The notes under the pieces are model-generated. The model was given only the letters and a program-made list of their open reading frames with translations, was not told where the DNA came from and did no database searches. Positions 27,039-62,870 of a stretch of DNA of 64,000 bases are shown in pieces (position 1 is the stretch's first letter; each line of letters opens with the position of its first letter). The DNA is from Clostridia bacterium (GTDB taxonomy: Bacteria; Bacillota; Clostridia; Christensenellales; UBA1242): contig JAZNYK010000007.1 in NCBI GenBank assembly GCA_045594425.1, forward strand, positions 72,786 to 136,785, written 5' to 3'. Both the position numbers and the translations under genes were made by a program.

Positions 27039-28463
27039 TTAGTCTTGTTTTATTGTTTTCATATATCTATTTTTGAACTCAATAAGCAATAGCAAACAGG
27101 CAGTCACTCCAGATGCAACACCTATCACCGACACAATCGCCGATAAAAATCCCTGAATATAATTATAATATATCAAAAACATCATAAAGTATAGAGCATT
27201 TTGAATTAAAGTTGGAATAATCTTTGAAAAACAACCCTTATCAACACAGAAATAAACAACACTAAGCCCCATTGATATAAAATAAAACCTATCAAGCATT
27301 TTTGGCATAAAAAACACCATCACAAATGCAAACAACATTCCAATAAAAACAAAATCATTTTTTGTAAACACATGATTTTTACTAAATTTCAAAACAACAT
27401 ACAAAATAAAAGCCAAAACTGTTAATGTTAAAATAACAAATGAAACTGTAAAAATTTTGCTAATAATTTCCAATGTTTCTGCCGAACAACTTAACACATC
27501 CACAAGCAAAACATTCACTGGATATAACAAATTTGCACATTTTGCAGACAAACCATAATTTGTTGTCGTTTGTCTAAAAAAGACTAAAAGCACATCCAAA
27601 ACAGGTCTTCCTGCAAACACTGGCAACAAATTAACAAAATACATAAGTGGTGCAATCCAAATATCTTTCCACTTTAAGTAATGCTTTCCCTCTTCATCTT
27701 TAACAATAAGCATAACAAACAAAACTGGAACAATAAACAAAAATTGCATTTTAAACGCAAAACTTAAGCCAATAAACATAAATGAAAGTTTTGATTTCTT
27801 TTTTAACGCAAACAAAAATGCTAAAAGTGCAAATGATGTATAAATTGCATCACATTGCCCCCAAGAAGAATATTCCATCAAAAGCACTGGCAAAACCAAA
27901 ATTATCGAAAATCTAACAATAGAAAACTTCTCGTCTTTTATATGTGAAATAATCTTTTCCACAATAAAAGCAAAGAGAATCGAAAACAATAGTGTTAAAT
28001 ATTTAATTGAATAAAGTGCATTCAACCCAGTTTTTGCAAAAAATATCAAAAAGTAATTATACGCTGGCGTATAGTCACTAACATCAACAATACTATAAAG
28101 CGCTTGTGATACAGACGATTTTTCGTATGATTCATACCAAACTTTTAAATAAGTCAAATAATCAAAAGATTCATAATCCATCAACAAAACACAAACCAAA
28201 AAACCACAAAGCAAAGCCAAACAAAGCATCACTCTTTTAATGACACGTTTTTCATCTGTTTTTTTTACAAAAAAGCATCCTGCAACACCTACTAGAGAAA
28301 ACGTTGCAAGCAAAACAAAAAAGTAAGTAATCCCATCACCCGCAAGCCTAACTGGCATAAAAAAGAACGACAAACAAGTCAAGACTGCAACAACCGCAAT
28401 CTCAACCATCAAAAATACATTATTTGCCAAATCTTTTTTTAAATTTTGAATAAATTGTTTCAT
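27039..28463 (-). CDS. Polytopic membrane protein, GT-C candidate (PIG-V/Gpi18/GT87-like), paralog A
   Basis: Shares the blocks DYLTYLK, DVSDYTPAYNY, WGQCDAIYTSFA and KKKSKLSFMFIG..KMQFLFIVP with the 28923-30341 gene. ATG 28463 overlaps the upstream stop (TAATG) and follows a GGGGA SD. Confidence 0.6.
   Translation of the reverse strand: MKQFIQNLKKDLANNVFLMVEIAVVAVLTCLSFFFMPVRLAGDGITYFFVLLATFSLVGVAGCFFVKKTDEKRVIKRVMLCLALLCGFLVCVLLMDYESFDYLTYLKVWYESYEKSSVSQALYSIVDVSDYTPAYNYFLIFFAKTGLNALYSIKYLTLLFSILFAFIVEKIISHIKDEKFSIVRFSIILVLPVLLMEYSSWGQCDAIYTSFALLAFLFALKKKSKLSFMFIGLSFAFKMQFLFIVPVLFVMLIVKDEEGKHYLKWKDIWIAPLMYFVNLLPVFAGRPVLDVLLVFFRQTTTNYGLSAKCANLLYPVNVLLVDVLSCSAETLEIISKIFTVSFVILTLTVLAFILYVVLKFSKNHVFTKNDFVFIGMLFAFVMVFFMPKMLDRFYFISMGLSVVYFCVDKGCFSKIIPTLIQNALYFMMFLIYYNYIQGFLSAIVSVIGVASGVTACLLLLIEFKNRYMKTIKQD
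27296..27343. repeat. 48-nt perfect direct repeat, copy 1
   Basis: GCATTTTTGGCATAAAAAACACCATCACAAATGCAAACAACATTCCAA is identical to 29207-29254. Confidence 0.9.
27592..27865. repeat. High-identity direct repeat, copy 1 (inside GT-C paralog A)
   Basis: Aligns base-for-base at an offset of 1890 nt with 29482-29755 and has only scattered mismatches. Includes a perfect 38-nt run, CCAATAAACATAAATGAAAGTTTTGATTTCTTTTTTAA. Confidence 0.85.
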
Positions 28464-28930
28464 TAAATCCCCGCTTTTGCACACAAATAATTTAACCTTT
28501 CAATTTGTCCAGACTTAATCATTTCAAGTCTATTTAACATCTTTTTTAGTTCAGCCAAATATTCTTTTAATGCATTAAACTCATCAACTAAAAACTCTTC
28601 CGATTCCCCTTCAAATTTCGTGAGTTTAAAATATTCATGAGTAAAATAGTTTCGTTTTTCCAAAAGTGATTTTAGTTTGTTAATTTCATCAAAACTCAAA
28701 CTCTTTGATTCATAAACAACACCAATAAGCGCACCAAATGTCATAGTTTGCATTTTTTCTTTCAAATATTCTGCATCACTAACCACCTGACTGTAAGCAT
28801 CAAGTGTAATTTTTTGATGTCTTCCAAATTCTTTTATAATTTCACTTTTTTCACAAATCTCACCAAGGTCAACTTCAATGTTTTGTGTAACCTCAACAAT
28901 TTTTCCGATAGCACAATAAATCCTATTCAT
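28463..28930 (-). CDS. Small helical cytoplasmic protein with Abi_2/HEPN-like motifs
   Basis: 155 aa, containing MTFGALIGVVY and KRNYFTHEYF (R-x4-H). Start and stop overlap both flanking GT-C genes. Confidence 0.45.
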   Translation of the reverse strand: MNRIYCAIGKIVEVTQNIEVDLGEICEKSEIIKEFGRHQKITLDAYSQVVSDAEYLKEKMQTMTFGALIGVVYESKSLSFDEINKLKSLLEKRNYFTHEYFKLTKFEGESEEFLVDEFNALKEYLAELKKMLNRLEMIKSGQIERLNYLCAKAGI

Positions 28931-30341
28931 TTTCTAATTCCTTTTTATTTTGTTTTACAAAAACATCTTTTGCATATTCAGTCCAGAATTGCCATGCCAA
29001 AATTGCAATATTTGCAAATGCAGAAACAACTCCAACCACCGAAACAAACACAGACACAAATGTCGTTAAATAAATATAGAAATGCAAATACATCATAAAG
29101 AACAATGTGTTACAGCAAAGCACAATGTTAAGCAAAGTTTTTGAAGATTTGTTAACACAGAAATAAACCCAAGTTAAACACATTGAAATATAATAAAATC
29201 TGTCGAGCATTTTTGGCATAAAAAACACCATCACAAATGCAAACAACATTCCAAAAAACAACAAATCTTTTTTATTCAACACTTGCATTTTGTTTCTTTT
29301 AAATATAACAAACAAAATAACAGCCATAATGCAAAGTGTTAAAACCACTTGAAATGCAACAAGCACATTAAACACAGTTGTTCCATGAACAACACCAAGC
29401 AAGTGATAAATATAACATAAATTTCCACAACATCCAGAAATTCTGTCATCACCAACTGTCTGTTTCAAATAAACCATCAATACATCCAAAATTGGTCTTC
29501 CTGCAAGCACAGGCACTAAATTCACCACATACATAAGTGGTGCAATCCAAATGTCTTTCCATTTCAAATAATGCTCTCCATTTTCGTCTTTAACAATAAG
29601 CATAACAAACAAAATTGGAACAATAAACAAAAATTGCATTTTAACAGCAAAACTAAAACCAATAAACATAAATGAAAGTTTTGATTTCTTTTTTAATGCG
29701 AATAATAGTGCAAGCATTGCAAATGATGTATAAATTGCATCACATTGTCCCCAAGCACCAAACTCAATAAACACTGGAGGCAAAACCAAAAACACAACAA
29801 ATCTTAAAAAGTTAAACTTGCTGTTTCTAATATGACAAATAATTTTTTCCAAAACAATACCAAGCAAAATTGAAAACAATAAAGTAACATACTTTATTGC
29901 ATAAAGCGAATTAAAACCCATTTTCGCAATAAAAATCAAAATGTAATTATAAAAAGGAGTGTAATTGCTAACATCAACGATGCTATAAAGTGCATCTTTA
30001 ACCGACCCTTTTGTATAGTTTCCGCACCAGCCTTTCAAAAAAGTCAAATAGTCACAAGTTTCAAAACTTGAATGCAAAAACACAAACAACAGAATTGAAA
30101 CCAAAATAGCATAAAACGAAACAATTTTAAAAGCAGATTCTTTTTTTAAAGCAACCCCACCAAAAACTCCAATTACAGCCAGCGGCACAAAAACCAAAAG
30201 CATATAAACAAGCAAATCTAAATCATATGTGTGCACAGGATAAAAGAAAGATAGTTGCACATTTAAAGCAAAAACCAAAATCAAACTCACAGCAAACACA
30301 ACATAAGACCATTTATTAAAAGTTGCTTTCTTAATTTCCAT
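28923..30341 (-). CDS. Polytopic membrane protein, GT-C candidate (PIG-V/Gpi18/GT87-like), paralog B
   Basis: See paralog A. AGAGG SD; 472 aa. Confidence 0.6.
   Translation of the reverse strand: MEIKKATFNKWSYVVFAVSLILVFALNVQLSFFYPVHTYDLDLLVYMLLVFVPLAVIGVFGGVALKKESAFKIVSFYAILVSILLFVFLHSSFETCDYLTFLKGWCGNYTKGSVKDALYSIVDVSNYTPFYNYILIFIAKMGFNSLYAIKYVTLLFSILLGIVLEKIICHIRNSKFNFLRFVVFLVLPPVFIEFGAWGQCDAIYTSFAMLALLFALKKKSKLSFMFIGFSFAVKMQFLFIVPILFVMLIVKDENGEHYLKWKDIWIAPLMYVVNLVPVLAGRPILDVLMVYLKQTVGDDRISGCCGNLCYIYHLLGVVHGTTVFNVLVAFQVVLTLCIMAVILFVIFKRNKMQVLNKKDLLFFGMLFAFVMVFFMPKMLDRFYYISMCLTWVYFCVNKSSKTLLNIVLCCNTLFFMMYLHFYIYLTTFVSVFVSVVGVVSAFANIAILAWQFWTEYAKDVFVKQNKKELENE
29207..29254. repeat. 48-nt perfect direct repeat, copy 2
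   Basis: Identical to 27296-27343. Confidence 0.9.
29482..29755. repeat. High-identity direct repeat, copy 2 (inside GT-C paralog B)
   Basis: Partner of 27592-27865. Confidence 0.85.
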
Positions 30342-36312: not shown

Positions 36313-37266
36313 TTAAATTTCCACAATATCAGCAATTTGCCTTGAATTAACCAACACAAGCAACTCTTCAGTTATGCCCTGAATCTTTTTTTCAATATTT
36401 GTTGATTGTTTCAAATATTCATGCACACCATCAAGTTTTTTCAATATTGATTGAATACTCTCTTGAACCGAAGAATTATAAATTGAAAGATTCTCCACTC
36501 TGTTAACAACAACATTTCCTGAAGAATTAAACATCATTGATTTATATTTTTCCACAATTCTTGGAGTCAATGAATTTGCATCGTTAATATTTTGAATTTC
36601 AGAAGTTCTTTTAAATGTGTTTGTTAAAAATTGACCATTGCTATACTCAAACATCATATAGGTTGCCGTTGAATCATCTTCATCAAACCCAACATTATTT
36701 CTAGACCTTTCAATAATCATATTAACCCAAACTGATTCAATCGCTGGATAATATTTAATTTCATAATAATACAAATCAAAAGTTTTTTCGTAACTGGCAC
36801 CAGTCATTCCGTTTATATCAAACAACGCATAAATCATATATGCATCATAATTTGTATATTCCTGTTTATCCACATAAAACTTTGAAAGTTTTTCTGCATA
36901 ACCAGATTTTCCATCCAAAACAACCTTGTCACTATAACACCATTTTTTCACTTCAAAATCAGATATTTTTGAAAAAACATCCAACATTTTCATTCCAGCA
37001 TAAACATAAGTATCATATTCTTCATAAAGATAATCATTTGTTTCTTCATCAACACTTGAATATGGCAAATTATTTAAACTTTGCTTTTTTGAGTGTTTAT
37101 CAAAATCATCAAAAGCAAACGCCAACACTTCGGCATCAGTTTTTTTAGTAGTTCCACCAGAACCGCCACCTGAACCATTTTCACTTTCATTGTTTTTGCA
37201 AGCAACAAAAATAAACGCAAATGGAATAATCAACATCATGCACAATACTTTTTTCAAAATTTTCAT
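36313..37266 (-). CDS. Lipoprotein of unknown function
   Basis: Signal peptide with lipobox (FIFVAC at Cys23) followed by a Gly/Ser linker. AGGAGA SD. Confidence 0.6.
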   Translation of the reverse strand: MKILKKVLCMMLIIPFAFIFVACKNNESENGSGGGSGGTTKKTDAEVLAFAFDDFDKHSKKQSLNNLPYSSVDEETNDYLYEEYDTYVYAGMKMLDVFSKISDFEVKKWCYSDKVVLDGKSGYAEKLSKFYVDKQEYTNYDAYMIYALFDINGMTGASYEKTFDLYYYEIKYYPAIESVWVNMIIERSRNNVGFDEDDSTATYMMFEYSNGQFLTNTFKRTSEIQNINDANSLTPRIVEKYKSMMFNSSGNVVVNRVENLSIYNSSVQESIQSILKKLDGVHEYLKQSTNIEKKIQGITEELLVLVNSRQIADIVEI

Positions 37267-55744: not shown

Positions 55745-55777
55745 AAAATAAAAAAAGAACTCCTTTTGGAGTTCTTT
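55745..55777 (-). terminator. Rho-independent terminator after ppx
   Basis: AAAGAACTCC-tttt-GGAGTTCTTT overlapping the ppx stop codon, with a U-run on the minus strand. Confidence 0.75.
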
Positions 55778-57297
55778 TATAAAATTTCAAGTTTCTTTTT
55801 AAATGTTTTTTCAAAATCTCTGCCAACATCCATACCTCTCTGAATTTCAAAAGTGGCATCTGCAACAGTGACTGTTTTCATGATAACTGAATCGCCCAAG
55901 ATATCACAATTTATGTCAACGATTACACTATTTTTTGTTCTGTCAAAACACTCTGCAAGTCTTAAAATCACGCCTAATTTCTTTGTTGCGTCAATATCCT
56001 CTACTGTAAGAATACCTGTGTATCTAGCCCAGTCAGACATCTTAATATCACCGCCAGAGTGAAGTGAAGCAACAAAACTAGCAAGGATAAGTTCTCTGTG
56101 TGTCAAACCATAGATTTCACTGTTTAAAACAACTTCAAATGAATGACTTGCGTGTTTGTGATAACTGATACGTTTTCCAACGTCATGCATATATGACGCA
56201 ACTCTCAAAACTTTTACATACCCTCTTGGAAGTTTATGTAAAACTCTGAGTTGTTTAAACAATAACATTGACAAGTTATAAACTTGTTCATTATGCTTTG
56301 TTGCACCTGATTCAAACTCTGATGTTTGAGCCATAACTGAAAAACCAACAATATCTGAATTTGGCTTTTCTAAAGTGCTTGGAGTTACAGAGTTAAACAA
56401 CAAACCTTCAACTAAAGACCTTGTTGTGATTGTTGCTGTTTCTCTTGGAATTTCTTCAAAAATTGTTTTGATTATTTGAACAGCATATGCAAATATGTCC
56501 GCTCTGGTTTCATGCAAACCTTTCAATCTTTTATTTTCATTGAGTTCTAATGCTTTTAATTGATTTAAAATATGGTCTGCATTAGCAGTTTTTAATACAT
56601 ATCCATCATCCTTATCAAGAGGATATTTAGTGTAGATTCTATCCATGCTAGACAAATCTTCAAAATATGTTCCATTTCCAACAAGGGTGAATTCTGGTTC
56701 GATATTGTTAAGCCATTCAAAGTCTGAAAGTTGTGATTTGATGTATTTTGCAACTTTTTCAAAAACTTCTTCTTTGCTGAATTTTTTCAAAGAATACATA
56801 TCAACCAATGTTTTTGGACCAACTGGAATATACGCTTGGTTTAAGATATTTCTTCTGTTATAGTGAATCAAATGAATGTTATCTGCACCAATGTTAACAA
56901 TGACACCCTTTGGAATGTCATAACTATTCATAACACCTGTATAGATTGCAGCATTTTGTTCTTCTGGTGACAATAGTGAAAATCTGAAACCACAAGTAAC
57001 AAACACTTCATCAAAGAAACTATAAATATTCATAGGCTTTGAATCTTTAATAAAACTTGCAATCGCAATAGTTTTTGAAACAGAAAACATATCACAAATT
57101 TTTCTGAAGTTTTTGAGTGTGCTAATGATTGATGAAATTTGATTTTTCTTTAAGAAATGGTCATCATCCATTTCAAGACCAAACTTGATAGGTTCAACCT
57201 CTACATCACAAATTGAAAAATAATTATCTTGAACAACATTCGCAATTACCAATTTTGCAGAATAGGTTTCAACAACAACAACAGCAATTTTATCCAC
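55777..57297 (-). CDS. ppx: Ppx/GppA-family phosphatase with C-terminal HD domain (exopolyphosphatase)
   Basis: An actin-like ATPase-fold N-half, then an HD-domain C-half (YMHDVGKRISYHKHASHS). GTG start at 57297 with a GGAGAG SD. Confidence 0.85.
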   Translation of the reverse strand: MDKIAVVVVETYSAKLVIANVVQDNYFSICDVEVEPIKFGLEMDDDHFLKKNQISSIISTLKNFRKICDMFSVSKTIAIASFIKDSKPMNIYSFFDEVFVTCGFRFSLLSPEEQNAAIYTGVMNSYDIPKGVIVNIGADNIHLIHYNRRNILNQAYIPVGPKTLVDMYSLKKFSKEEVFEKVAKYIKSQLSDFEWLNNIEPEFTLVGNGTYFEDLSSMDRIYTKYPLDKDDGYVLKTANADHILNQLKALELNENKRLKGLHETRADIFAYAVQIIKTIFEEIPRETATITTRSLVEGLLFNSVTPSTLEKPNSDIVGFSVMAQTSEFESGATKHNEQVYNLSMLLFKQLRVLHKLPRGYVKVLRVASYMHDVGKRISYHKHASHSFEVVLNSEIYGLTHRELILASFVASLHSGGDIKMSDWARYTGILTVEDIDATKKLGVILRLAECFDRTKNSVIVDINCDILGDSVIMKTVTVADATFEIQRGMDVGRDFEKTFKKKLEIL

Positions 57298-57469: not shown

Positions 57470-58252
57470 TTATAACCTTGAAATAACGTGTGATGGACAC
57501 GCTGCAACGCATTTGCCACACTTTATACACTTGTCTGTATCAATTTTAGGAAGACCACCAACCATTTTGATTGCATTTGATGGACAAGCAACCACACACG
57601 CTTCACAATGTGTGCAAGAAACTGAACAATTTCTAGTTACAACAGAGTCTGATGAGTTGTTTTTGCACACAACTTCAACAAACTTTTTTGATGGAATAAG
57701 TGATATTAAGTTATTTGGGCAAACAGCAACACATTCACCACAACCAACGCACTTTTCCTTATCTACAATCGCACAACCTTTTGGTGAAATTGAAATTGCA
57801 CCATATACACAAGATTTAACACAATCGCCACAGCCAAGACAAGCAAATGGACAGAACTTATCACCACTATGTTGTAAGTTTTTACTTGCACAAGTATTGT
57901 CACCTACATATTTGAACTTGTTTTTACAATCAGAACCACCTTTGCAAGCAACAAATGCAACATTATCAAAACGAACTTTTCTTTCCTTTTTCATAATTTG
58001 TCTGCATTTAAGATAATTTTTGCCTGTCAAAAATGAACAAGTGCTCATTGTTGTTTTTCCTTTAGCCATATCTTGTGCAAATTGTGCGCAAGTTGTTCTG
58101 CCACACTTGCCACAATCAAGCCCTGGAAGCAATTCTCTTAAAACTTCAGATGTTTTGTCGAGTTTTTTGTGTTTGTTTGTAACAACAACCATAACAATAA
58201 CGTTGAGTAAAACAAGCATAACTGTCACGACATATAAAACAATTTTTACCAT
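57470..58252 (-). CDS. rnfB: RnfB-like polyferredoxin subunit
   Basis: An N-terminal TM helix, LDCGKCGRTTCAQFA, then several CxxCxxCxxxC(P) motifs (CVGCGECVAVCP, CTHCEACVVACP, CIKCGKCVAACP). Confidence 0.8.
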   Translation of the reverse strand: MVKIVLYVVTVMLVLLNVIVMVVVTNKHKKLDKTSEVLRELLPGLDCGKCGRTTCAQFAQDMAKGKTTMSTCSFLTGKNYLKCRQIMKKERKVRFDNVAFVACKGGSDCKNKFKYVGDNTCASKNLQHSGDKFCPFACLGCGDCVKSCVYGAISISPKGCAIVDKEKCVGCGECVAVCPNNLISLIPSKKFVEVVCKNNSSDSVVTRNCSVSCTHCEACVVACPSNAIKMVGGLPKIDTDKCIKCGKCVAACPSHVISRL

Positions 58253-58261
58253 AACAACTCC

Positions 58262-58840
58262 TTAAACCACCAATATTCCCACATAATATAAAATTATTGA
58301 AAAGATTGCAAGCAAGAATAGTCTTGAAGGAACGTGCCTGAAATTTTTGTTAATATATGATTTGTTGAATGATTCAACAAAAAATCCAACAAAAACATTC
58401 ATAACAAGCACAACCAAAGCAACGGCTATTAAAGACATTGCAAAATTTGCAATAGACACACTCATATCAAGTGTGAAAATAATTGAAAGAGTGTATGCAA
58501 AGTCCATAACGTAAGAATAGGATGTTTCATACAAATAGTGTTTAAAACTAGAAATCTTTGTCCAAATAAATGCAACTAAAAGGTTGTAAATCCCAACAAA
58601 TAAAACGTTTACACTAGTTGCAATATAATACAAATCAAATTTAGAATAAACATAAGTATGCAAAACGTATGCAATAAACGAGCAAACAACAATCCCCAAA
58701 ATTAAAAACAGTGCACTGATGTATCTGAAAGACCTATACATCTTTTCTCTTTGAAATTGAATAGCCCCAGTTCCATTCATTACCAAAACGTTACTTTGAA
58801 CACCATAGAGGATAATATAAGACAATAAAACTTCTAACAT
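58262..58840 (-). CDS. rnfA: RnfA-like membrane subunit, highly divergent
   Basis: Six-TM protein of RnfA size at the RnfA position. The C-terminal region NFRHVPSRLFLLAIFSIILYY parallels canonical PFRGNAIALITAGLMSLAF. The canonical LGLCP motif is absent. Confidence 0.55.
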   Translation of the reverse strand: MLEVLLSYIILYGVQSNVLVMNGTGAIQFQREKMYRSFRYISALFLILGIVVCSFIAYVLHTYVYSKFDLYYIATSVNVLFVGIYNLLVAFIWTKISSFKHYLYETSYSYVMDFAYTLSIIFTLDMSVSIANFAMSLIAVALVVLVMNVFVGFFVESFNKSYINKNFRHVPSRLFLLAIFSIILYYVGILVV

Positions 58841-59733
58841 TATTTACCCTCCTTCTTCTGTCTATCGTAAACCTTTTCAACTTTTGTTTCTTTTGAGAAT
58901 TTAAGACGTCTATTTTTCTTTTTCTTCTTTGGAACTGAACTTGCAGTTGTTTCTTGTGTTTCTTCAGATTCTTCAACTTCAACAAGTTCATTTTCGCTTT
59001 CTTTTTCTTTGATTTCTTCAATTTTTTCACCATCAATTTTGTTGGTGTTAATTTCAGAAATAAGCAATTTTTGTCTTCTTAAATTATCATATTGGAACAC
59101 TTTTTCATTTCTAATCTTTTTAACAAACTTTTGATAAGTGATTTTCTTTTCATCAAGTTTCTTTGTAACAAATCTGAAAATGTATTCTGAAACAAAACAA
59201 AGTAATCCAAGCCACAAAAGTTCAAATGTAATTGAATCGAAAAATTCATAGCCATTATACTTAAAGATTTTCTTGTCAAAAATTGTGCCGTATGCCAAAA
59301 ATTCTTTGACAATTGCAAACAATAAAGTGATTATAATATAAACCAAAACAGTTCTAATCAAACTGATAAAGAAGTTTTTTGTCAATGCTTTGCTTTCAAG
59401 ATAAACAGCATCCGCACTTAAAATAACTGTTGTTATAACCACAAAAAAACTATTATCTTGTTTTGTGAGCCCCAATATTGAATAATTTGAAACTGCATAA
59501 TCAATGATTGTTACTAGAAGTGACGACAACAATGCAACAATAAAAATCTTGAGGCTATTGTTTAAGTGTCTGTTAAACACCCAACAAACAAAAGATGAAA
59601 TCAAATAACAAACGCTTGTTGCAAGCACATAATACAACGCTTGATTAGCGTTAGACATAACCAACAATAGCGGACATATTGCAAGCACCACAATGTGGAT
59701 AAAACTCATTTCAACATTAGTTCTTATATGCAT
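58840..59733 (-). CDS. rnfE: RnfE-like membrane subunit, divergent, with ~95-aa charged C-terminal tail
   Basis: LAICPLLLVMSNANQALYYVLATS parallels canonical [30 protein letters not shown] SD 7 nt upstream of ATG 59733. Confidence 0.6.
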   Translation of the reverse strand: MHIRTNVEMSFIHIVVLAICPLLLVMSNANQALYYVLATSVCYLISSFVCWVFNRHLNNSLKIFIVALLSSLLVTIIDYAVSNYSILGLTKQDNSFFVVITTVILSADAVYLESKALTKNFFISLIRTVLVYIIITLLFAIVKEFLAYGTIFDKKIFKYNGYEFFDSITFELLWLGLLCFVSEYIFRFVTKKLDEKKITYQKFVKKIRNEKVFQYDNLRRQKLLISEINTNKIDGEKIEEIKEKESENELVEVEESEETQETTASSVPKKKKKNRRLKFSKETKVEKVYDRQKKEGK

Positions 59734-60649
59734 TTCTAAATCCTCCTAAAGAGAGTGGTTTCCACATAAAGTATCTGTCCATAAATGGAACAAGTGTGTT
59801 TACAATAAGAGCAACGAAAAATACTGTGTTTTCACCAAGCGTTCCTATCTTCCAGAAAATGGCTGACAACGCACCAAATAACACAGAATAAACAACTTTG
59901 CCAATGAATGTGTTTGGTGATGTGTTTGGGTCGGTCATCATAAACACGCTAACAAATATAAATGACCCAGAAAATAGATTAATAACAGTTGTTTCCAAAC
60001 TATTAAGCATTAATCCAACAACAAAGTATGTTAAAATTGAAATAATTGGAATTTTTAAATCTAGAACACTTGTGTATGCCAAAACAATTGCGCAAACAAC
60101 AATAACAGCAATGCAAGTGGTTCCAATTCCACCAACACCCCTGCCAAAAATCAAGTCTGAAATAGAATTTGCTCCGCCAAGTGCAACAGAAATATATTCC
60201 TCACCATTTAATGTGAGTTTATATAGTTCAGAAGCAAAGCCTGTTGAAACAACACCAGCAAAACATCTTCCAACAAGTGCTGGATTAAACTTGTTTCTTC
60301 CAAGACCACCAAATGCCATTTTCACAATAAAAATTGAAACAAATGCTGATGCAATCACAATGTAAAATGGTGCTTTATATGGCATGGTTAACGCCAAAAT
60401 TAAAGCGGTTACAAAAAATGACAAGTTATCAACAGAAAATTTCTTTCTAGAAATTAAATTGAACAAACATTCAAATATAAAACATGATGCAATGCTCACC
60501 AAAATTGGAACCAAACTTATGATTCCAAAAAACATAACACCATAAATCGCAGGAACCATCAAAGCAATCGACAAATACAAAAACATTTTGTTAATGTCAT
60601 TGTTACTGCGGATAAATGGTGCATTTGAAACAACAAAATTACTTTCCAT
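59717..60649 (-). CDS. rnfD: RnfD-like membrane subunit
   Basis: SNAPFIRS N-terminus and the FMMTDPNTSP motif typical of RnfD/NqrB. The start overlaps the rnfC stop (TAATG). Confidence 0.8.
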   Translation of the reverse strand: MESNFVVSNAPFIRSNNDINKMFLYLSIALMVPAIYGVMFFGIISLVPILVSIASCFIFECLFNLISRKKFSVDNLSFFVTALILALTMPYKAPFYIVIASAFVSIFIVKMAFGGLGRNKFNPALVGRCFAGVVSTGFASELYKLTLNGEEYISVALGGANSISDLIFGRGVGGIGTTCIAVIVVCAIVLAYTSVLDLKIPIISILTYFVVGLMLNSLETTVINLFSGSFIFVSVFMMTDPNTSPNTFIGKVVYSVLFGALSAIFWKIGTLGENTVFFVALIVNTLVPFMDRYFMWKPLSLGGFRNAYKN

Positions 60650-61962
60650 TATTCAGCACCCCTGTTCTTTTTATCTACATATTGAGCAGTTGCAATTCTT
60701 TGTGTTAAAAATCTCTTTGCTGGACACACATAAGAGCAACAACCACATTTTATACATGAATGAACCTTGTTTTTTGCAAGTTGGTCATAATTTTCAGTTA
60801 AATATAATTGGTCTAACTTTTGAGGATTCAAAAGCACAGGACAAACCGAAGAGCATTTTCCACATGAAATGCATGGATATTCTTTTTTGTTTGAAAGCAC
60901 ATCATATTTTGTTAAAAGCAATGTGTTTGTAACGAGCGAGATTGAAATATCTCTGTTGTATTGAGCAGTTCCTGATAAAATTGAACCATCAATAAGTTGA
61001 GATTCAACCGCACCATCTTGAATGCCAACAAAATCTAACACCTTGTCATAAGATGTTCCGCTTGGAATGATATAGTTTCCTTTTCTAACAATGTTGTCAC
61101 CATCAATGGTTACAACTTTGCTTGTTAGTGGTTTGTTAAATTCAACTGCACGACAAAAATTGTAGCATGATTCTGCATACTCAATAGAAATACCTTCATC
61201 CAAGAACGAATTTTTTTGATTAATTGTTTTCTTGCACAAAAGTTTTGCCAAAATATATGGATTGTCAAACGGATATTTATTTGGAATGAACTTAATTTTA
61301 AAGTCGTAATTCTTTTTTGTATCTTGAATATGCTTTTTAAGTTTGTTTGCAAGTTTGTAGTTTGCTTCAGTAAACACAAATGTGATTGTTGATGCGCTTG
61401 TGATGTTCATGAAATATTTTGCACCATTAACAACTTCTTCCATTCGATATTCAGTTAATGTTTGGTTGATTGAATTGTTTGGGTCAGTGCTGTCAAGCAA
61501 AACAATCAAGGTTTTGTAAGACCTTGCACCAACGTAAGCATATTTTAAGTATGTTGGCATACCAGAAATTGTATCGATAATACCCGCTTCTTTTAAACGA
61601 TTAATCAAACTAACGTCATTAATTGATTCAATTGCTGGCAAATCTTCAACATCACCTTTGTTGTCATTCATGATTAAAACGTGTTTTGAATAATCTCCAT
61701 AAGAGTTCATTTTTTCAAAAATATTCAAAACCTTTCCGCTTACAGGAGAAAAAATGTTGATACCAAATTTCCCAGAAGGCTTTGCTATCAAAGACCCTTG
61801 TTTAACAGTATCACCAATGTGAACAACTGGTTCAGACTCTGCAATAGATTTAACTTTTAATGGAACATTATAAAAATCCACTGGGCGCATTTGAACAATG
61901 TCAACACCAATGCTCATCTTTTTTACATATGGATAAATCCCTCTAAAACTAATCAATCCCAC
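60649..61962 (-). CDS. rnfC: RnfC-like subunit with intact 2x[4Fe-4S] motifs but a degenerate NADH/FMN-binding region
   Basis: RnfC_N-like barrel (HIGDTVKQGSLIA...PVSGKV), CISCGKCSSVCP and CIKCGCCSYVCP. GTG start at 61962 with a GAGAGG SD. Confidence 0.75.
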   Translation of the reverse strand: MGLISFRGIYPYVKKMSIGVDIVQMRPVDFYNVPLKVKSIAESEPVVHIGDTVKQGSLIAKPSGKFGINIFSPVSGKVLNIFEKMNSYGDYSKHVLIMNDNKGDVEDLPAIESINDVSLINRLKEAGIIDTISGMPTYLKYAYVGARSYKTLIVLLDSTDPNNSINQTLTEYRMEEVVNGAKYFMNITSASTITFVFTEANYKLANKLKKHIQDTKKNYDFKIKFIPNKYPFDNPYILAKLLCKKTINQKNSFLDEGISIEYAESCYNFCRAVEFNKPLTSKVVTIDGDNIVRKGNYIIPSGTSYDKVLDFVGIQDGAVESQLIDGSILSGTAQYNRDISISLVTNTLLLTKYDVLSNKKEYPCISCGKCSSVCPVLLNPQKLDQLYLTENYDQLAKNKVHSCIKCGCCSYVCPAKRFLTQRIATAQYVDKKNRGAE

Positions 61963-62046
61963 AATAAACCTCTCTATATATACATAATATATTTTATCAA
62001 AAAAGAGATTTATTGTAAAACAAAATCAAGCCATTGCAAAAATTAC

Positions 62047-62424
62047 TCAATTTTTCTTTTTCATCAAAATTATTGTTTTTACAAAGTAAAAAATACCAAC
62101 CAAAATTATAAAACTTGCAAACAGAATTTGAAGCAAATTTGAGTTCGTTTTTAAAGCAAACAAACTTGCAAAAATTGCCACCGCAGTAGATGGCACAGCA
62201 ACACAAAAAAACGACTTGAAATCAATGAGTTTATTTTTTATATAAATCACAAAACAAATAGTTGCCAAAACAACAAAGCAAACAACATTTGTAGACTGAC
62301 AAATTATCTGTTCGATTCCAAAAAACAAACTTAAAAGTGGTATTAAAAAAGTTCCACCACCCATGCCCATTCCAGCAAATATTCCAGAAAAACTTGAGAT
62401 TAATATAAATAGAAAAAATCGCAT
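62047..62424 (-). CDS. TSUP (TauE/SafE) family half-size membrane protein, C-terminal-half equivalent
   Basis: 125 aa, 4 TM helices, with GMGGGTFLIPLL in TM1. Confidence 0.7.
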   Translation of the reverse strand: MRFFLFILISSFSGIFAGMGMGGGTFLIPLLSLFFGIEQIICQSTNVVCFVVLATICFVIYIKNKLIDFKSFFCVAVPSTAVAIFASLFALKTNSNLLQILFASFIILVGIFYFVKTIILMKKKN

Positions 62425-62489: not shown

Positions 62490-62870
62490 TTAAAAGATTA
62501 TCATACAAACACCCGCTATCACAAGCACGACTGAAAAGATTAAATCAATGATATTGTTTTTTAATTTTTTTAAAAGTTTTGTTCCAACCAAACTTCCTAT
62601 CACACTGCCTATTCCGCAAAATAATATCAGCATATAATCAACCTGTTTTTTTACTATATAAATAACTGAACTTGAGATGCACATAAAAAGCACACAAGCA
62701 AGTGTTGTTGCGTGAGCAACCTTTGATTCAACCTTTTGAGTTAACCCTATCATAGGAACAAGCAACAACCCTCCGCCTGCTCCAAAAAATCCATTTATAA
62801 AACCAGACGCTAAACCAATGCCAATAAGCAGGGCTATATTTAAAACTTTTCTTTTTAATTCATTTTTCAC
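62490..62870 (-). CDS. TSUP (TauE/SafE) family half-size membrane protein, N-terminal-half equivalent
   Basis: 126 aa, 4 TM helices, with GAGGGLLLVPMI in TM1. GTG start. Confidence 0.7.
   Translation of the reverse strand: MKNELKRKVLNIALLIGIGLASGFINGFFGAGGGLLLVPMIGLTQKVESKVAHATTLACVLFMCISSSVIYIVKKQVDYMLILFCGIGSVIGSLVGTKLLKKLKNNIIDLIFSVVLVIAGVCMIIF

Follow-up and report, generated by a model that had tools for sequence, protein, structure and literature searches.

The stretch of DNA analysed here, 64,000 nucleotides (nt) from the genome of a Clostridia bacterium (the window), carries an operon derived from rnfCDGEAB, the gene set of the clostridial Rnf ferredoxin:NAD+ oxidoreductase, in which rnfG is missing. 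The window has a G+C content of about 31% and a gene set typical of Bacillota, including CtsR-McsA-McsB-ClpC, a T-box leader ahead of pheST, L21-Prp, MreB, Obg and PolA, together with a cluster of six tRNA genes, and the stop codons in use (TAA 45, TAG 12, TGA 5), with TGA among them, indicate the standard bacterial code. The closest public genomes are uncultured metagenome-assembled genomes (MAGs) from the gut of human (including Hadza) and mouse, labelled by NCBI as uncultured Clostridia, Eubacteriales or Lachnospiraceae bacterium. The operon occupies positions 57470-61962 of the minus strand and consists of five translationally coupled open reading frames (ORFs) in the order rnfC-D-E-A-B (product lengths in amino acids, aa):

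60649-61962, minus strand: rnfC-like gene, 437 aa, GTG start
59717-60649, minus strand: rnfD-like gene, 310 aa
58840-59733, minus strand: rnfE-like gene, 297 aa
58262-58840, minus strand: rnfA-like gene, 192 aa
57470-58252, minus strand: rnfB, 260 aa

The gene junctions described in the original prediction were recovered, with C and D overlapping by 1 nt (TAATG), D and E by 17 nt and E and A by 1 nt (TAATG), and with a gap of 9 nt between A and B; the motifs that it quoted are likewise all in place. The C, D, E and B subunits are assigned to Rnf families at E-values between 1e-71 and 1e-12, and every curated NCBIfam Rnf model (rnfA-E) either stays below its threshold or gives no match, as seen for RnfC (TIGR01945, 240 bits against a cut-off of 245.95, E 3.6e-71), RnfD (TIGR01946, 142.9 bits against 207.05), RnfE (TIGR01948, 34.3 bits against 213.4) and RnfB (TIGR01944, 63.2 against 68.7; NF005503, 155.2 against 252). 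The operon was compared with solved Rnf structures and with four canonical clostridial operons (Vescimonas, Monoglobus, Subdoligranulum and Acetoanaerobium), in all of which the gene order is C-D-G-E-A-B; the variant RnfC and RnfD were each sampled by 120 cluster representatives, to which counts out of 120 refer. The sequence covered was 64 kb of this genome and, for each related locus, 7-21 kb around the operon, with at most 10 kb on each side.

RnfG and the membrane redox centres

In canonical Rnf, Na+ pumping needs reduction of the cluster of RnfA and RnfE and electron transfer via the flavin mononucleotides (FMN) of RnfG (FMN-G) and RnfD (FMN-D), and NAD+ reduction needs the FMN of RnfC (FMN-C). 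The electron path has been described as running from ferredoxin through the RnfB clusters and the mobile FdI domain to the A/E [2Fe-2S] cluster, from there via FMN-G, FMN-D and riboflavin to the two RnfC clusters, and finally via FMN-C to NAD+ (PMC9588780, PMC11889175, PMC12174285).

One of the missing stations is RnfG. It had been claimed that the operon leaves no room for rnfG between D and E and that no FMN_bind-type ORF occurs in the window, and both claims stand: the two genes overlap by the 17 nt given above, and Pfam scans of about 60 window ORFs returned no FMN_bind (PF04205) and no ApbE domain. A hidden Markov model (HMM) built from the four canonical RnfG proteins gave a best E-value of 0.1 when the window and nine related loci, about 200 kb together, were searched in six-frame translation, with each canonical RnfG recovered at about 1e-82 as a positive control. 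Just three [ST]GA[TS] tetrapeptides, attributable to chance, were found in the window ORFs. The E. coli ApbE protein used as query gave no match either, and since the four canonical rnf loci are likewise without an adjacent ApbE, its local absence is uninformative on the rest of the genome. A 317-aa ORF at 36313-37266, which has no Pfam match and carries a [ST]GA[TS] tetrapeptide (NGMTGASYEK), was the top though insignificant match of the E. coli ApbE (E 2.3), probably by chance.

Another is the membrane metal site, whose ligands (Cys25 and Cys113 of RnfA, Cys26 and Cys109 of RnfE) have been called invariant across Rnf and Nqr (Vitt et al. 2022, PMC9588780). The RnfE-like protein is recognised by PF02508 (E 7.8e-12) and by the chains 7xk3_D (2.9e-6) and 7zc6_E (1.2e-5), and shows the following features:

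59665-59685, minus strand: LAICPLL, with the sole retained cysteine of the four RnfA/E metal-site cysteines
59416-59439, minus strand: VITTVILS, at the position of the second RnfE ligand (VVNCIIL), Cys replaced by Thr or Val
58843-59163, minus strand: C-terminal extension of RnfE, about 105 aa, a conserved basic segment (YQKFVKKIRNEK.FQYD.LRR.KLL) followed by a Lys/Glu-rich tail

Three of the four cysteines of the intramembrane iron-sulfur (Fe-S) centre are gone, the RnfA-like protein conserving none and RnfE only the first; among 28 diverse members of the RnfA-like family no conserved cysteine was found. A heme or a His-based substitute for the lost centres was considered and rejected, as the RnfA-like and RnfE-like proteins have no conserved His pair. 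The RnfE extension is kept in all relatives of the window type, is without a Pfam match, and is absent in two further lineages described below, L017 and L023, in which RnfE has 216 and 223 aa. The termini of RnfE are cytoplasmic, and the extension is therefore taken to be cytoplasmic as well.

For the fourth gene the assignment is less direct, because its product matched no Pfam, NCBIfam or PDB sequence, also when a 28-sequence profile was compared with the PDB, and hhalign against the four canonical RnfA proteins gave a weak global alignment (probability 3%, E 0.0045). Its AlphaFold2 model, with a predicted local distance difference test score (pLDDT) of 79, has RnfA of 7ZC6 as best match (template modelling score, TM-score, 0.72), and the next 16 structural matches are all RnfA, NqrE, RnfE or NqrD chains. 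Since proof at the level of sequence failed, the assignment relies on fold, operon position and a recognisable C-terminal motif; as modelled, the protein retains the RnfA fold with a sequence that has become unrecognisable.

RnfD is readily identified (PF03116, E 6.1e-64, 216.7 bits; phmmer against 7zc6_D, 1.3e-35), and three of its segments bear on flavin binding:

60164-60208, minus strand: shortened outer loop NGEEYISVALGGANS (residues 148-162), at the flavinylation site D-x-V-T-(S/T)-A-T-P-L
60275-60313, minus strand: FGGLGRNKFNPAL, RnfD/NqrB core motif including the riboflavin-pocket Asn
59915-59938, minus strand: MTDPNTSP, which keeps the strictly conserved Asp of the riboflavin and proposed Na+ site (Asp in 117/120)

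The outer loop has the consensus N-G-E-x-Y-x-S-L-x and is at least 7 residues shorter than the canonical one. The canonical flavinylated Thr (Thr153 in C. tetanomorphum) aligns inside NGEEYISVA, and its column holds Thr in 58, Ala in 35 and Ser in 25 of the 120 variant sequences, none of which contains [ST]GA[TS] anywhere in RnfD. The original prediction was right that the flavinylation motif is absent and wrong in placing the site at LGGANS, as the true site lies a few residues upstream, at NGEEYISVA. A Ser of the loop, adjoining the flavinylated-Thr column, is invariant (120/120; N-G-E-x-Y-x-S). The residues described around FMN-D in canonical RnfD, namely Glu185, Ser284 and Asn90 (Vitt et al. 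2022, PMC9588780), are also replaced, Glu185 by Thr in 119 of the 120, Ser284 by Val, Ile or Leu, and Asn90 by Thr, and the His of the canonical N-terminal SPHI motif has become Phe or Tyr in RnfD of the window type. The riboflavin itself has been located in a cytoplasm-facing pocket, flanked or hydrogen-bonded by Asn124/Asp248 in C. tetanomorphum and N123/D249 in A. woodii (PMC9588780, PMC11889175). The membrane core common to RnfD and NqrB is present in the variants with both the pocket Asn and the pocket Asp: the core residues G, G, G, N, N and P occur in 120/120, and K-x-x-F-G-G-L-G-x-N-x-F-N-P-A and T-D-P-x-T-S-P are invariant or nearly so. The predicted loss of the trans-membrane electron path is in keeping with these findings, i.e. 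the absence of RnfG, the disappearance of the RnfD flavinylation motif and FMN-D residues, and the survival of one of four invariant cysteines.

RnfC and RnfB

The RnfC-like protein matches 7zc6_C with phmmer at 2.5e-47, and its AlphaFold2 model (pLDDT 87; predicted TM-score, pTM, 0.86) has TM-scores of 0.89-0.91 to RnfC chains versus 0.67 to NqrA; the model indicates a full RnfC fold in which the NuoF-like domain is remodelled. The positions concerned are:

61543-61578, minus strand: IDTISGMPTYLK, in place of the FMN-phosphate loop VG(L/M)GGA(T/G)FPTHVK
61465-61503, minus strand: VLLDSTDPNNSIN, in place of (V/I)N(A/G)AECEPY(L/I)T.D
61249-61278, minus strand: KYPFDNPYIL, in place of KYPQG(A/G)EKQL
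61153-61167, minus strand: CxxxC pair C266 and C270, on the helix after the old N-V-x-T flavin-contact segment
60838-60873, minus strand: first [4Fe-4S] motif, CISCGKCSSVCP, four Cys in 120/120
60721-60756, minus strand: second [4Fe-4S] motif, CIKCGCCSYVCP, four ligand Cys in 120/120, plus Cys408

The NuoF-type FMN/NADH motifs GGxGFPT, ECEPY and YPQGxEK are replaced across the 120 sequences by TISxMPT, DSTDPN and YPFDNPY, so the claim that the NADH/flavin entry was lost holds for the whole family. In the FMN-phosphate loop, with the new consensus (V/I)D-TISxMPTYLK, both Gly are gone in 120/120 while Pro and Lys are retained; AECEPY has given way to DSTDPN within a consensus (ILMDSTDPN, also LMDSTDPN) that is itself conserved, and GGPMMG to GN(I/L/V)LSG. 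The NuoF-like domain is nevertheless the most conserved region of the variant RnfC, with a mean major-residue frequency of 0.79 versus 0.71 for the ferredoxin domain and with 57 of 180 columns conserved at 95% or more. New cysteines have appeared as well: C266 and C270, which are found in 120/120 variants and are not present as a pair in canonical RnfC, lie on a helix formed by residues 263-274 in the AlphaFold2 model and, by analogy with the NuoF/RnfC fold, would line the old flavin pocket, and Cys408, found in 118/120 where canonical RnfC has Ala, Ser or Thr, stands between two ligands of the second cluster motif.

The C-terminal ferredoxin domain of RnfC with its two [4Fe-4S] clusters is complete, all eight Cys being present in 120/120. 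RnfB, which matches NF041836 (E 9e-46), PF04060 and several Fer4 families, encodes an N-terminal transmembrane helix, an FdI domain and a polyferredoxin, and thereby retains the helix, the FdI pattern CxxCx4Cx16C and the [4Fe-4S] modules of its canonical counterpart:

58037-58117, minus strand: FdI cluster motif CGKCGRTTC...C (PF04060 E 1.1e-10, and alignment; motif type in PMC9588780)

All Cys columns of RnfB are common to the four canonical RnfB proteins, the mobile FdI domain included, which together with the eight cluster cysteines of RnfC upholds the view that the cytoplasmic Fe-S modules are intact.

Distribution, selection and gene neighbourhood

The RnfA-like protein forms a tight and isolated family of 85 clusters at 90% identity, not one of which has a Pfam domain; an exhaustive comparison of its profile with 1.84 billion representatives gave 28 matches at E<=1e-3, and a scan of metagenome contigs added only two short loci. 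Five species-level gut MAGs, with 56-64% identity in RnfD, have the synteny TauE-TauE-C-D-E-A-B-Ppx in common. Two further lineages, L017 and L023 (GCA_045534555.1), carry a G-less operon behind a TauE pair at 33-35% identity to the window over RnfC and RnfD, and L017 also has Ppx downstream of the operon, so that a survey of relatives for the five-gene architecture, as had been proposed, finds it in three deep lineages (window type, L017 and L023). L017 and L023 are less derived and retain T-D-Y or partial E..P.Y motifs. Of the two RnfE cysteines, L017 retains only the first and L023 only the second, which shows that the metal site was already non-functional in the common ancestor and that the remaining cysteine has been drifting.

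In a neighbour-joining tree of RnfC and RnfD (732 columns) the G-less lineages all fall in one clade, and they are 25-32% identical to canonical Rnf, compared with 42-51% for canonical Rnf across clostridial orders, which points to one ancient loss after which change accelerated. The ratio of non-synonymous to synonymous substitution rates (dN/dS; NG86 method of Nei and Gojobori, eight pairwise comparisons) lies between 0.05 and 0.26 for all five genes and is lowest for rnfB and rnfC, values that are upper bounds because synonymous sites are saturated in distant pairs. The operon has been remodelled under purifying selection and is not decaying. Nor do the losses look like random erosion, since they fall on the outward half and the NAD(H) end of the system while the cytoplasm-facing cofactor sites are kept. 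The earlier suggestion of a repurposed rather than a standard Rnf fits the purifying selection, the conserved and remodelled NuoF-like domain and the occurrence of the architecture in three deep lineages; the system is a vertically inherited and selectively maintained five-subunit descendant of clostridial rnfCDGEAB.

The operon is flanked by the following features:

62490-62870 and 62047-62424, minus strand: half-size TauE/TSUP pair, directly upstream of rnfC
61991-62019, minus strand: promoter-like site TTTACA-17-TAAAAT, with TG, in the 84-nt gap 5' of rnfC; consensus match only
55777-57297, minus strand: Ppx/GppA-family gene, conserved downstream neighbour with its own promoter-like site
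55753-55778, minus strand: strong terminator-like hairpin after ppx/gppA

In the TauE/TSUP pair the upstream gene corresponds to the C-terminal half of PF01925, the downstream gene to its N-terminal half, and the pair lies directly 5' of rnfC in all three deep G-less lineages. As MreB, L21-Prp-L27, PNPOx and OGG are also syntenic, the link of the TauE pair and of Ppx/GppA to the operon is inseparable from collinearity; it is uncertain whether the TauE/TSUP pair belongs to the system, and the Ppx/GppA gene is probably not part of the complex. A database protein that seems to fuse TauE and RnfC (P0086, 591 aa, 100% identical over RnfC) was rejected as a gene-calling artefact in which two in-frame TGA codons were read as sense (code 4) on a low-GC contig: at 62026-62049 a TGA terminates the TauE-like gene, another TGA follows in frame and the 84-nt spacer to rnfC is in frame, and because TGA is a stop in the window the fusion is not real.

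Further observations were made away from the operon. Between 25434 and 30341 lie four consecutive ORFs (530, 481, 155 and 472 aa) without a Pfam match, two of which (27039-28484 and 28923-30341) encode paralogous polytopic membrane proteins with long identical stretches (QCDAIYTSFA...KKKSKLSFMFIG), and the AT skew of this region is strongly positive (0.15-0.26), unlike the remaining window. In related loci (L004 1580-7606, L005 324-6824, L014 1-4895) ORFs of 2000-2170 aa, rich in Asn, Ser, Thr and Tyr, for which no Pfam domain is recorded, are found divergently upstream of the TauE pair and have an N-terminal signal-like helix and a C-terminal transmembrane anchor; the window ends short of the matching position.

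Function and relation to known systems

From the alignments it is well supported that the variant is not a canonical ferredoxin:NAD+ pump, as the A/E centre, RnfG, FMN-D and FMN-C are missing and a transmembrane loop and hydride transfer to NAD+ would be missing with them. What has been removed appears to be the outward half of the redox loop (the RnfA/E [2Fe-2S] cluster and the covalent FMN of RnfG and RnfD) along with the FMN/NAD(H) site of RnfC, and what has been kept, all of it predicted to face the cytoplasm, is the RnfB polyferredoxin with its mobile FdI domain, the two RnfC [4Fe-4S] clusters and the riboflavin-pocket residues of RnfD. In the canonical structure RnfC holds the FdII+III domain of RnfB, and RnfC domains together with portions of RnfB make up the NAD+ cleft (PMC9588780). 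Because the retained parts face the cytoplasm, FdII+III is held by RnfC and the cleft is walled by RnfC and RnfB, a ferredoxin-fed module is the most economical model, and we consider it probable (about 60%) that the G-less Rnf descendant works on the cytoplasmic side of the membrane, to which it is anchored, as an electron module linked to ferredoxin and with a new acceptor site. RnfB most likely still accepts electrons from reduced ferredoxin; these would be handled wholly on the cytoplasmic face, passing to the di-cluster module of RnfC and possibly to the RnfD riboflavin pocket, and would be delivered to a new acceptor site, located in the remodelled and highly conserved NuoF-like domain of RnfC, which in canonical Rnf lies in the cleft shared with RnfB and here bears the new invariant Cys. 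RnfD, RnfE and RnfA may then serve mainly as a membrane scaffold, comparable to the cofactor-free NqrA in Na+-NQR.

Several points weigh against this model. The shortest distance between carriers of RnfB and RnfC in 7ZC6 is 25 Å (PMC9588780), which is too far for direct transfer, so the mobile FdI domain or a new centre (C266/C270/C408) must bridge the gap. RnfD, RnfE and RnfA are under purifying selection too, hinting at more than a passive scaffold; RnfC might bind a flavin or another nucleotide anew, given that the old motifs are still represented by the Pro, the Lys and an acidic residue; and the invariant Ser of the short RnfD loop could conceivably be a non-canonical modification site. 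Function is deduced here from sequence and predicted structure, and the genes that were read come from 64 kb of this genome and 7-21 kb per relative, so that an rnfG/apbE pair may exist elsewhere.

The constraint on the three membrane subunits can also be read differently, namely that RnfD and the RnfA/E-like pair form an ion or solute pathway, as a redox-regulated or redox-independent transporter or channel, with RnfB and RnfC acting as Fe-S sensors of the ferredoxin pool. This is a minority possibility, though the strongest of the alternatives. RnfD and the RnfA/E-like pair have transporter-like folds, an inward/outward rocker switch has been described for RnfA/E and NqrD/E (PMC11889175), the RnfD core motifs with their Asp and Asn are invariant, and all three lineages keep half-size TSUP/TauE genes immediately upstream. 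However, that linkage does not stand out from the general genome collinearity, nothing in the window-type RnfA-like protein corresponds to the acidic E88 of RnfA, which belongs to the Na+-gating ion-pair network, the highest conservation is in the cytoplasmic NuoF-like domain and not in the membrane part, and a six-cluster polyferredoxin plus a di-cluster domain would be much wiring for a sensor.

The new cysteines invite a more specific and rather speculative reading, in which the one-electron/two-electron converter that is the FMN of RnfC has been replaced by a Cys-based or new metal centre (C266-x3-C270 at the old flavin pocket, with C408 next to a cluster ligand) in the cleft shared with RnfB, and the complex would be membrane-anchored and use ferredoxin to reduce a disulfide, an organosulfur compound or some other substrate that is not a nicotinamide. 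Its logic would be that of ferredoxin:thioredoxin reductase or heterodisulfide reductase, and it might work with the co-conserved half-size TauE/TSUP transporters; if true, it would represent a new enzymatic use of the Rnf scaffold. Quite unlikely is a system that is still a canonical ferredoxin:NAD+ oxidoreductase translocating Na+ or H+, with RnfG and a flavin transferase encoded elsewhere and non-standard ligands as substitutes. The search did cover no more than a 64-kb window of the genome, the four canonical loci likewise have no ApbE next to rnf, and the invariant loop Ser of RnfD and one RnfE Cys remain; but four independent cofactor sites (the A/E Cys, FMN-D, FMN-C/NADH and RnfG) have been hit together, three of the four A/E cysteines reported as invariant (PMC9588780) are gone and the survivor differs between lineages, the flavinylated-Thr column holds Ala in 35 of 120 RnfD, the NCBIfam Rnf models fall below cut-off or do not match, and the genes that overlap here as D and E have rnfG between them in 4/4 canonical operons. 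A decaying remnant on its way out of a reduced genome, which the many lost catalytic residues and the divergence from canonical Rnf (25-32% against 42-51% identity) might suggest, is effectively refuted by the dN/dS values, by five ORFs that are intact and translationally coupled at every locus seen, by new invariant residues in place of the lost motifs and by an architecture that persists across lineages at only about 33% identity.

The variant matters for metabolic reconstruction, since the presence of Rnf in an anaerobe's genome is taken as a dependable sign of ferredoxin-dependent energy conservation and redox balancing. Public annotation of the operon is inconsistent, with RnfD named 'RnfABCDGE type electron transport complex subunit D', RnfA a hypothetical protein, and RnfC either a '4Fe-4S dicluster domain-containing protein' (NCBI) or RnfC (JGI). 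Because pipelines name RnfD as an Rnf subunit, reconstructions would credit gut Clostridia with a Na+-pumping ferredoxin:NAD+ oxidoreductase, which, judging by their sequences, these abundant uncultured bacteria cannot have. The variant amounts to a natural dissection of Rnf, in which the loop's outward half and the NADH site are gone while the ferredoxin-side wiring and the riboflavin pocket are under strong selection, and it offers a tractable system for what the membrane scaffold and Fe-S arms of Rnf do without flavin-coupled ion pumping. In the literature searched, with most subscription journals outside coverage, no description of a G-less, five-gene, degenerate or Cys-less Rnf was found, and flavinylation surveys, which start from FMN_bind or ApbE genes, miss a G-less system by design.

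Among known systems, the closest is clostridial RnfCDGEAB (7ZC6 from C. tetanomorphum, 9ERI from A. woodii), with which the variant has in common the gene order C-D-(G)-E-A-B, the folds of RnfC (TM-score 0.9), RnfD, RnfE and RnfA, the transmembrane helix, FdI motif and polyferredoxin of RnfB, the two [4Fe-4S] motifs of RnfC and the RnfD core with the riboflavin-pocket Asn and Asp. Unlike clostridial Rnf, it is without RnfG, the RnfD flavinylation motif, the FMN-D residues and three of the four RnfA/E cysteines, and it has a new RnfC consensus with invariant Cys, an RnfE tail of about 105 aa and an RnfA that is unrecognisable by sequence. As five defining features of Rnf are absent, it is regarded as a derived variant and not filed as a functional member of the Rnf family. 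Nor is it an Na+-NQR, because its entry subunit is of the RnfB type and not NqrF (FAD/[2Fe-2S]/NADH), no NqrC/RnfG was found in the sequence covered, and RnfC keeps two clusters. NqrA of Na+-NQR does provide a precedent, being an RnfC-type subunit without FMN/NAD(H) function that is still obligatory and bound to the RnfD/NqrB homologue, and the variant RnfC would be a second, independent case of such a subunit being re-tooled. However, NqrA has lost both [4Fe-4S] clusters, which the variant RnfC strictly keeps, and Na+-NQR retains the whole membrane redox loop (NqrC, NqrB-FMN and the NqrD/E cluster) that the variant has lost.

A different rearrangement was encountered at locus L011 (325-4834; also L012 and L013; biogas MAG GCA_012799205.1), where RnfC-D-G-E-A is followed by a small FMN_bind lipoprotein that has a flavinylation motif (MITGATGS), with no RnfB. 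Like the window system it has its RnfA cysteines replaced (Cys to Tyr and Ser), and its RnfA is the most distant match of the RnfA-like profile, but it keeps a canonical-looking RnfC (GMGGAAFPT, CECEPY), RnfD (DGLSTATPL) and RnfG (ITGATKS) and adds a second secreted flavinylatable protein. Its electrons may be sent outward rather than drawn from ferredoxin. Finally, the two-subunit Nqr/Rnf-like complexes (Méheust et al. 2021, PMC8238504; Huang et al. 2024, PMC11334425) resemble the variant in being evolutionary offshoots that use part of the Rnf/Nqr loop, and in having an RnfD/NqrB-type subunit without a flavinylation site in which the non-covalent flavin pocket is kept. These complexes retain the flavinylated extracytosolic RnfG/NqrC-like subunit, have an NAD-binding domain fused to the RnfD-like protein and are without RnfB, C, E and A, whereas the variant described here is their converse, having kept the cytoplasmic Fe-S subunits and dropped the extracytosolic flavoprotein.

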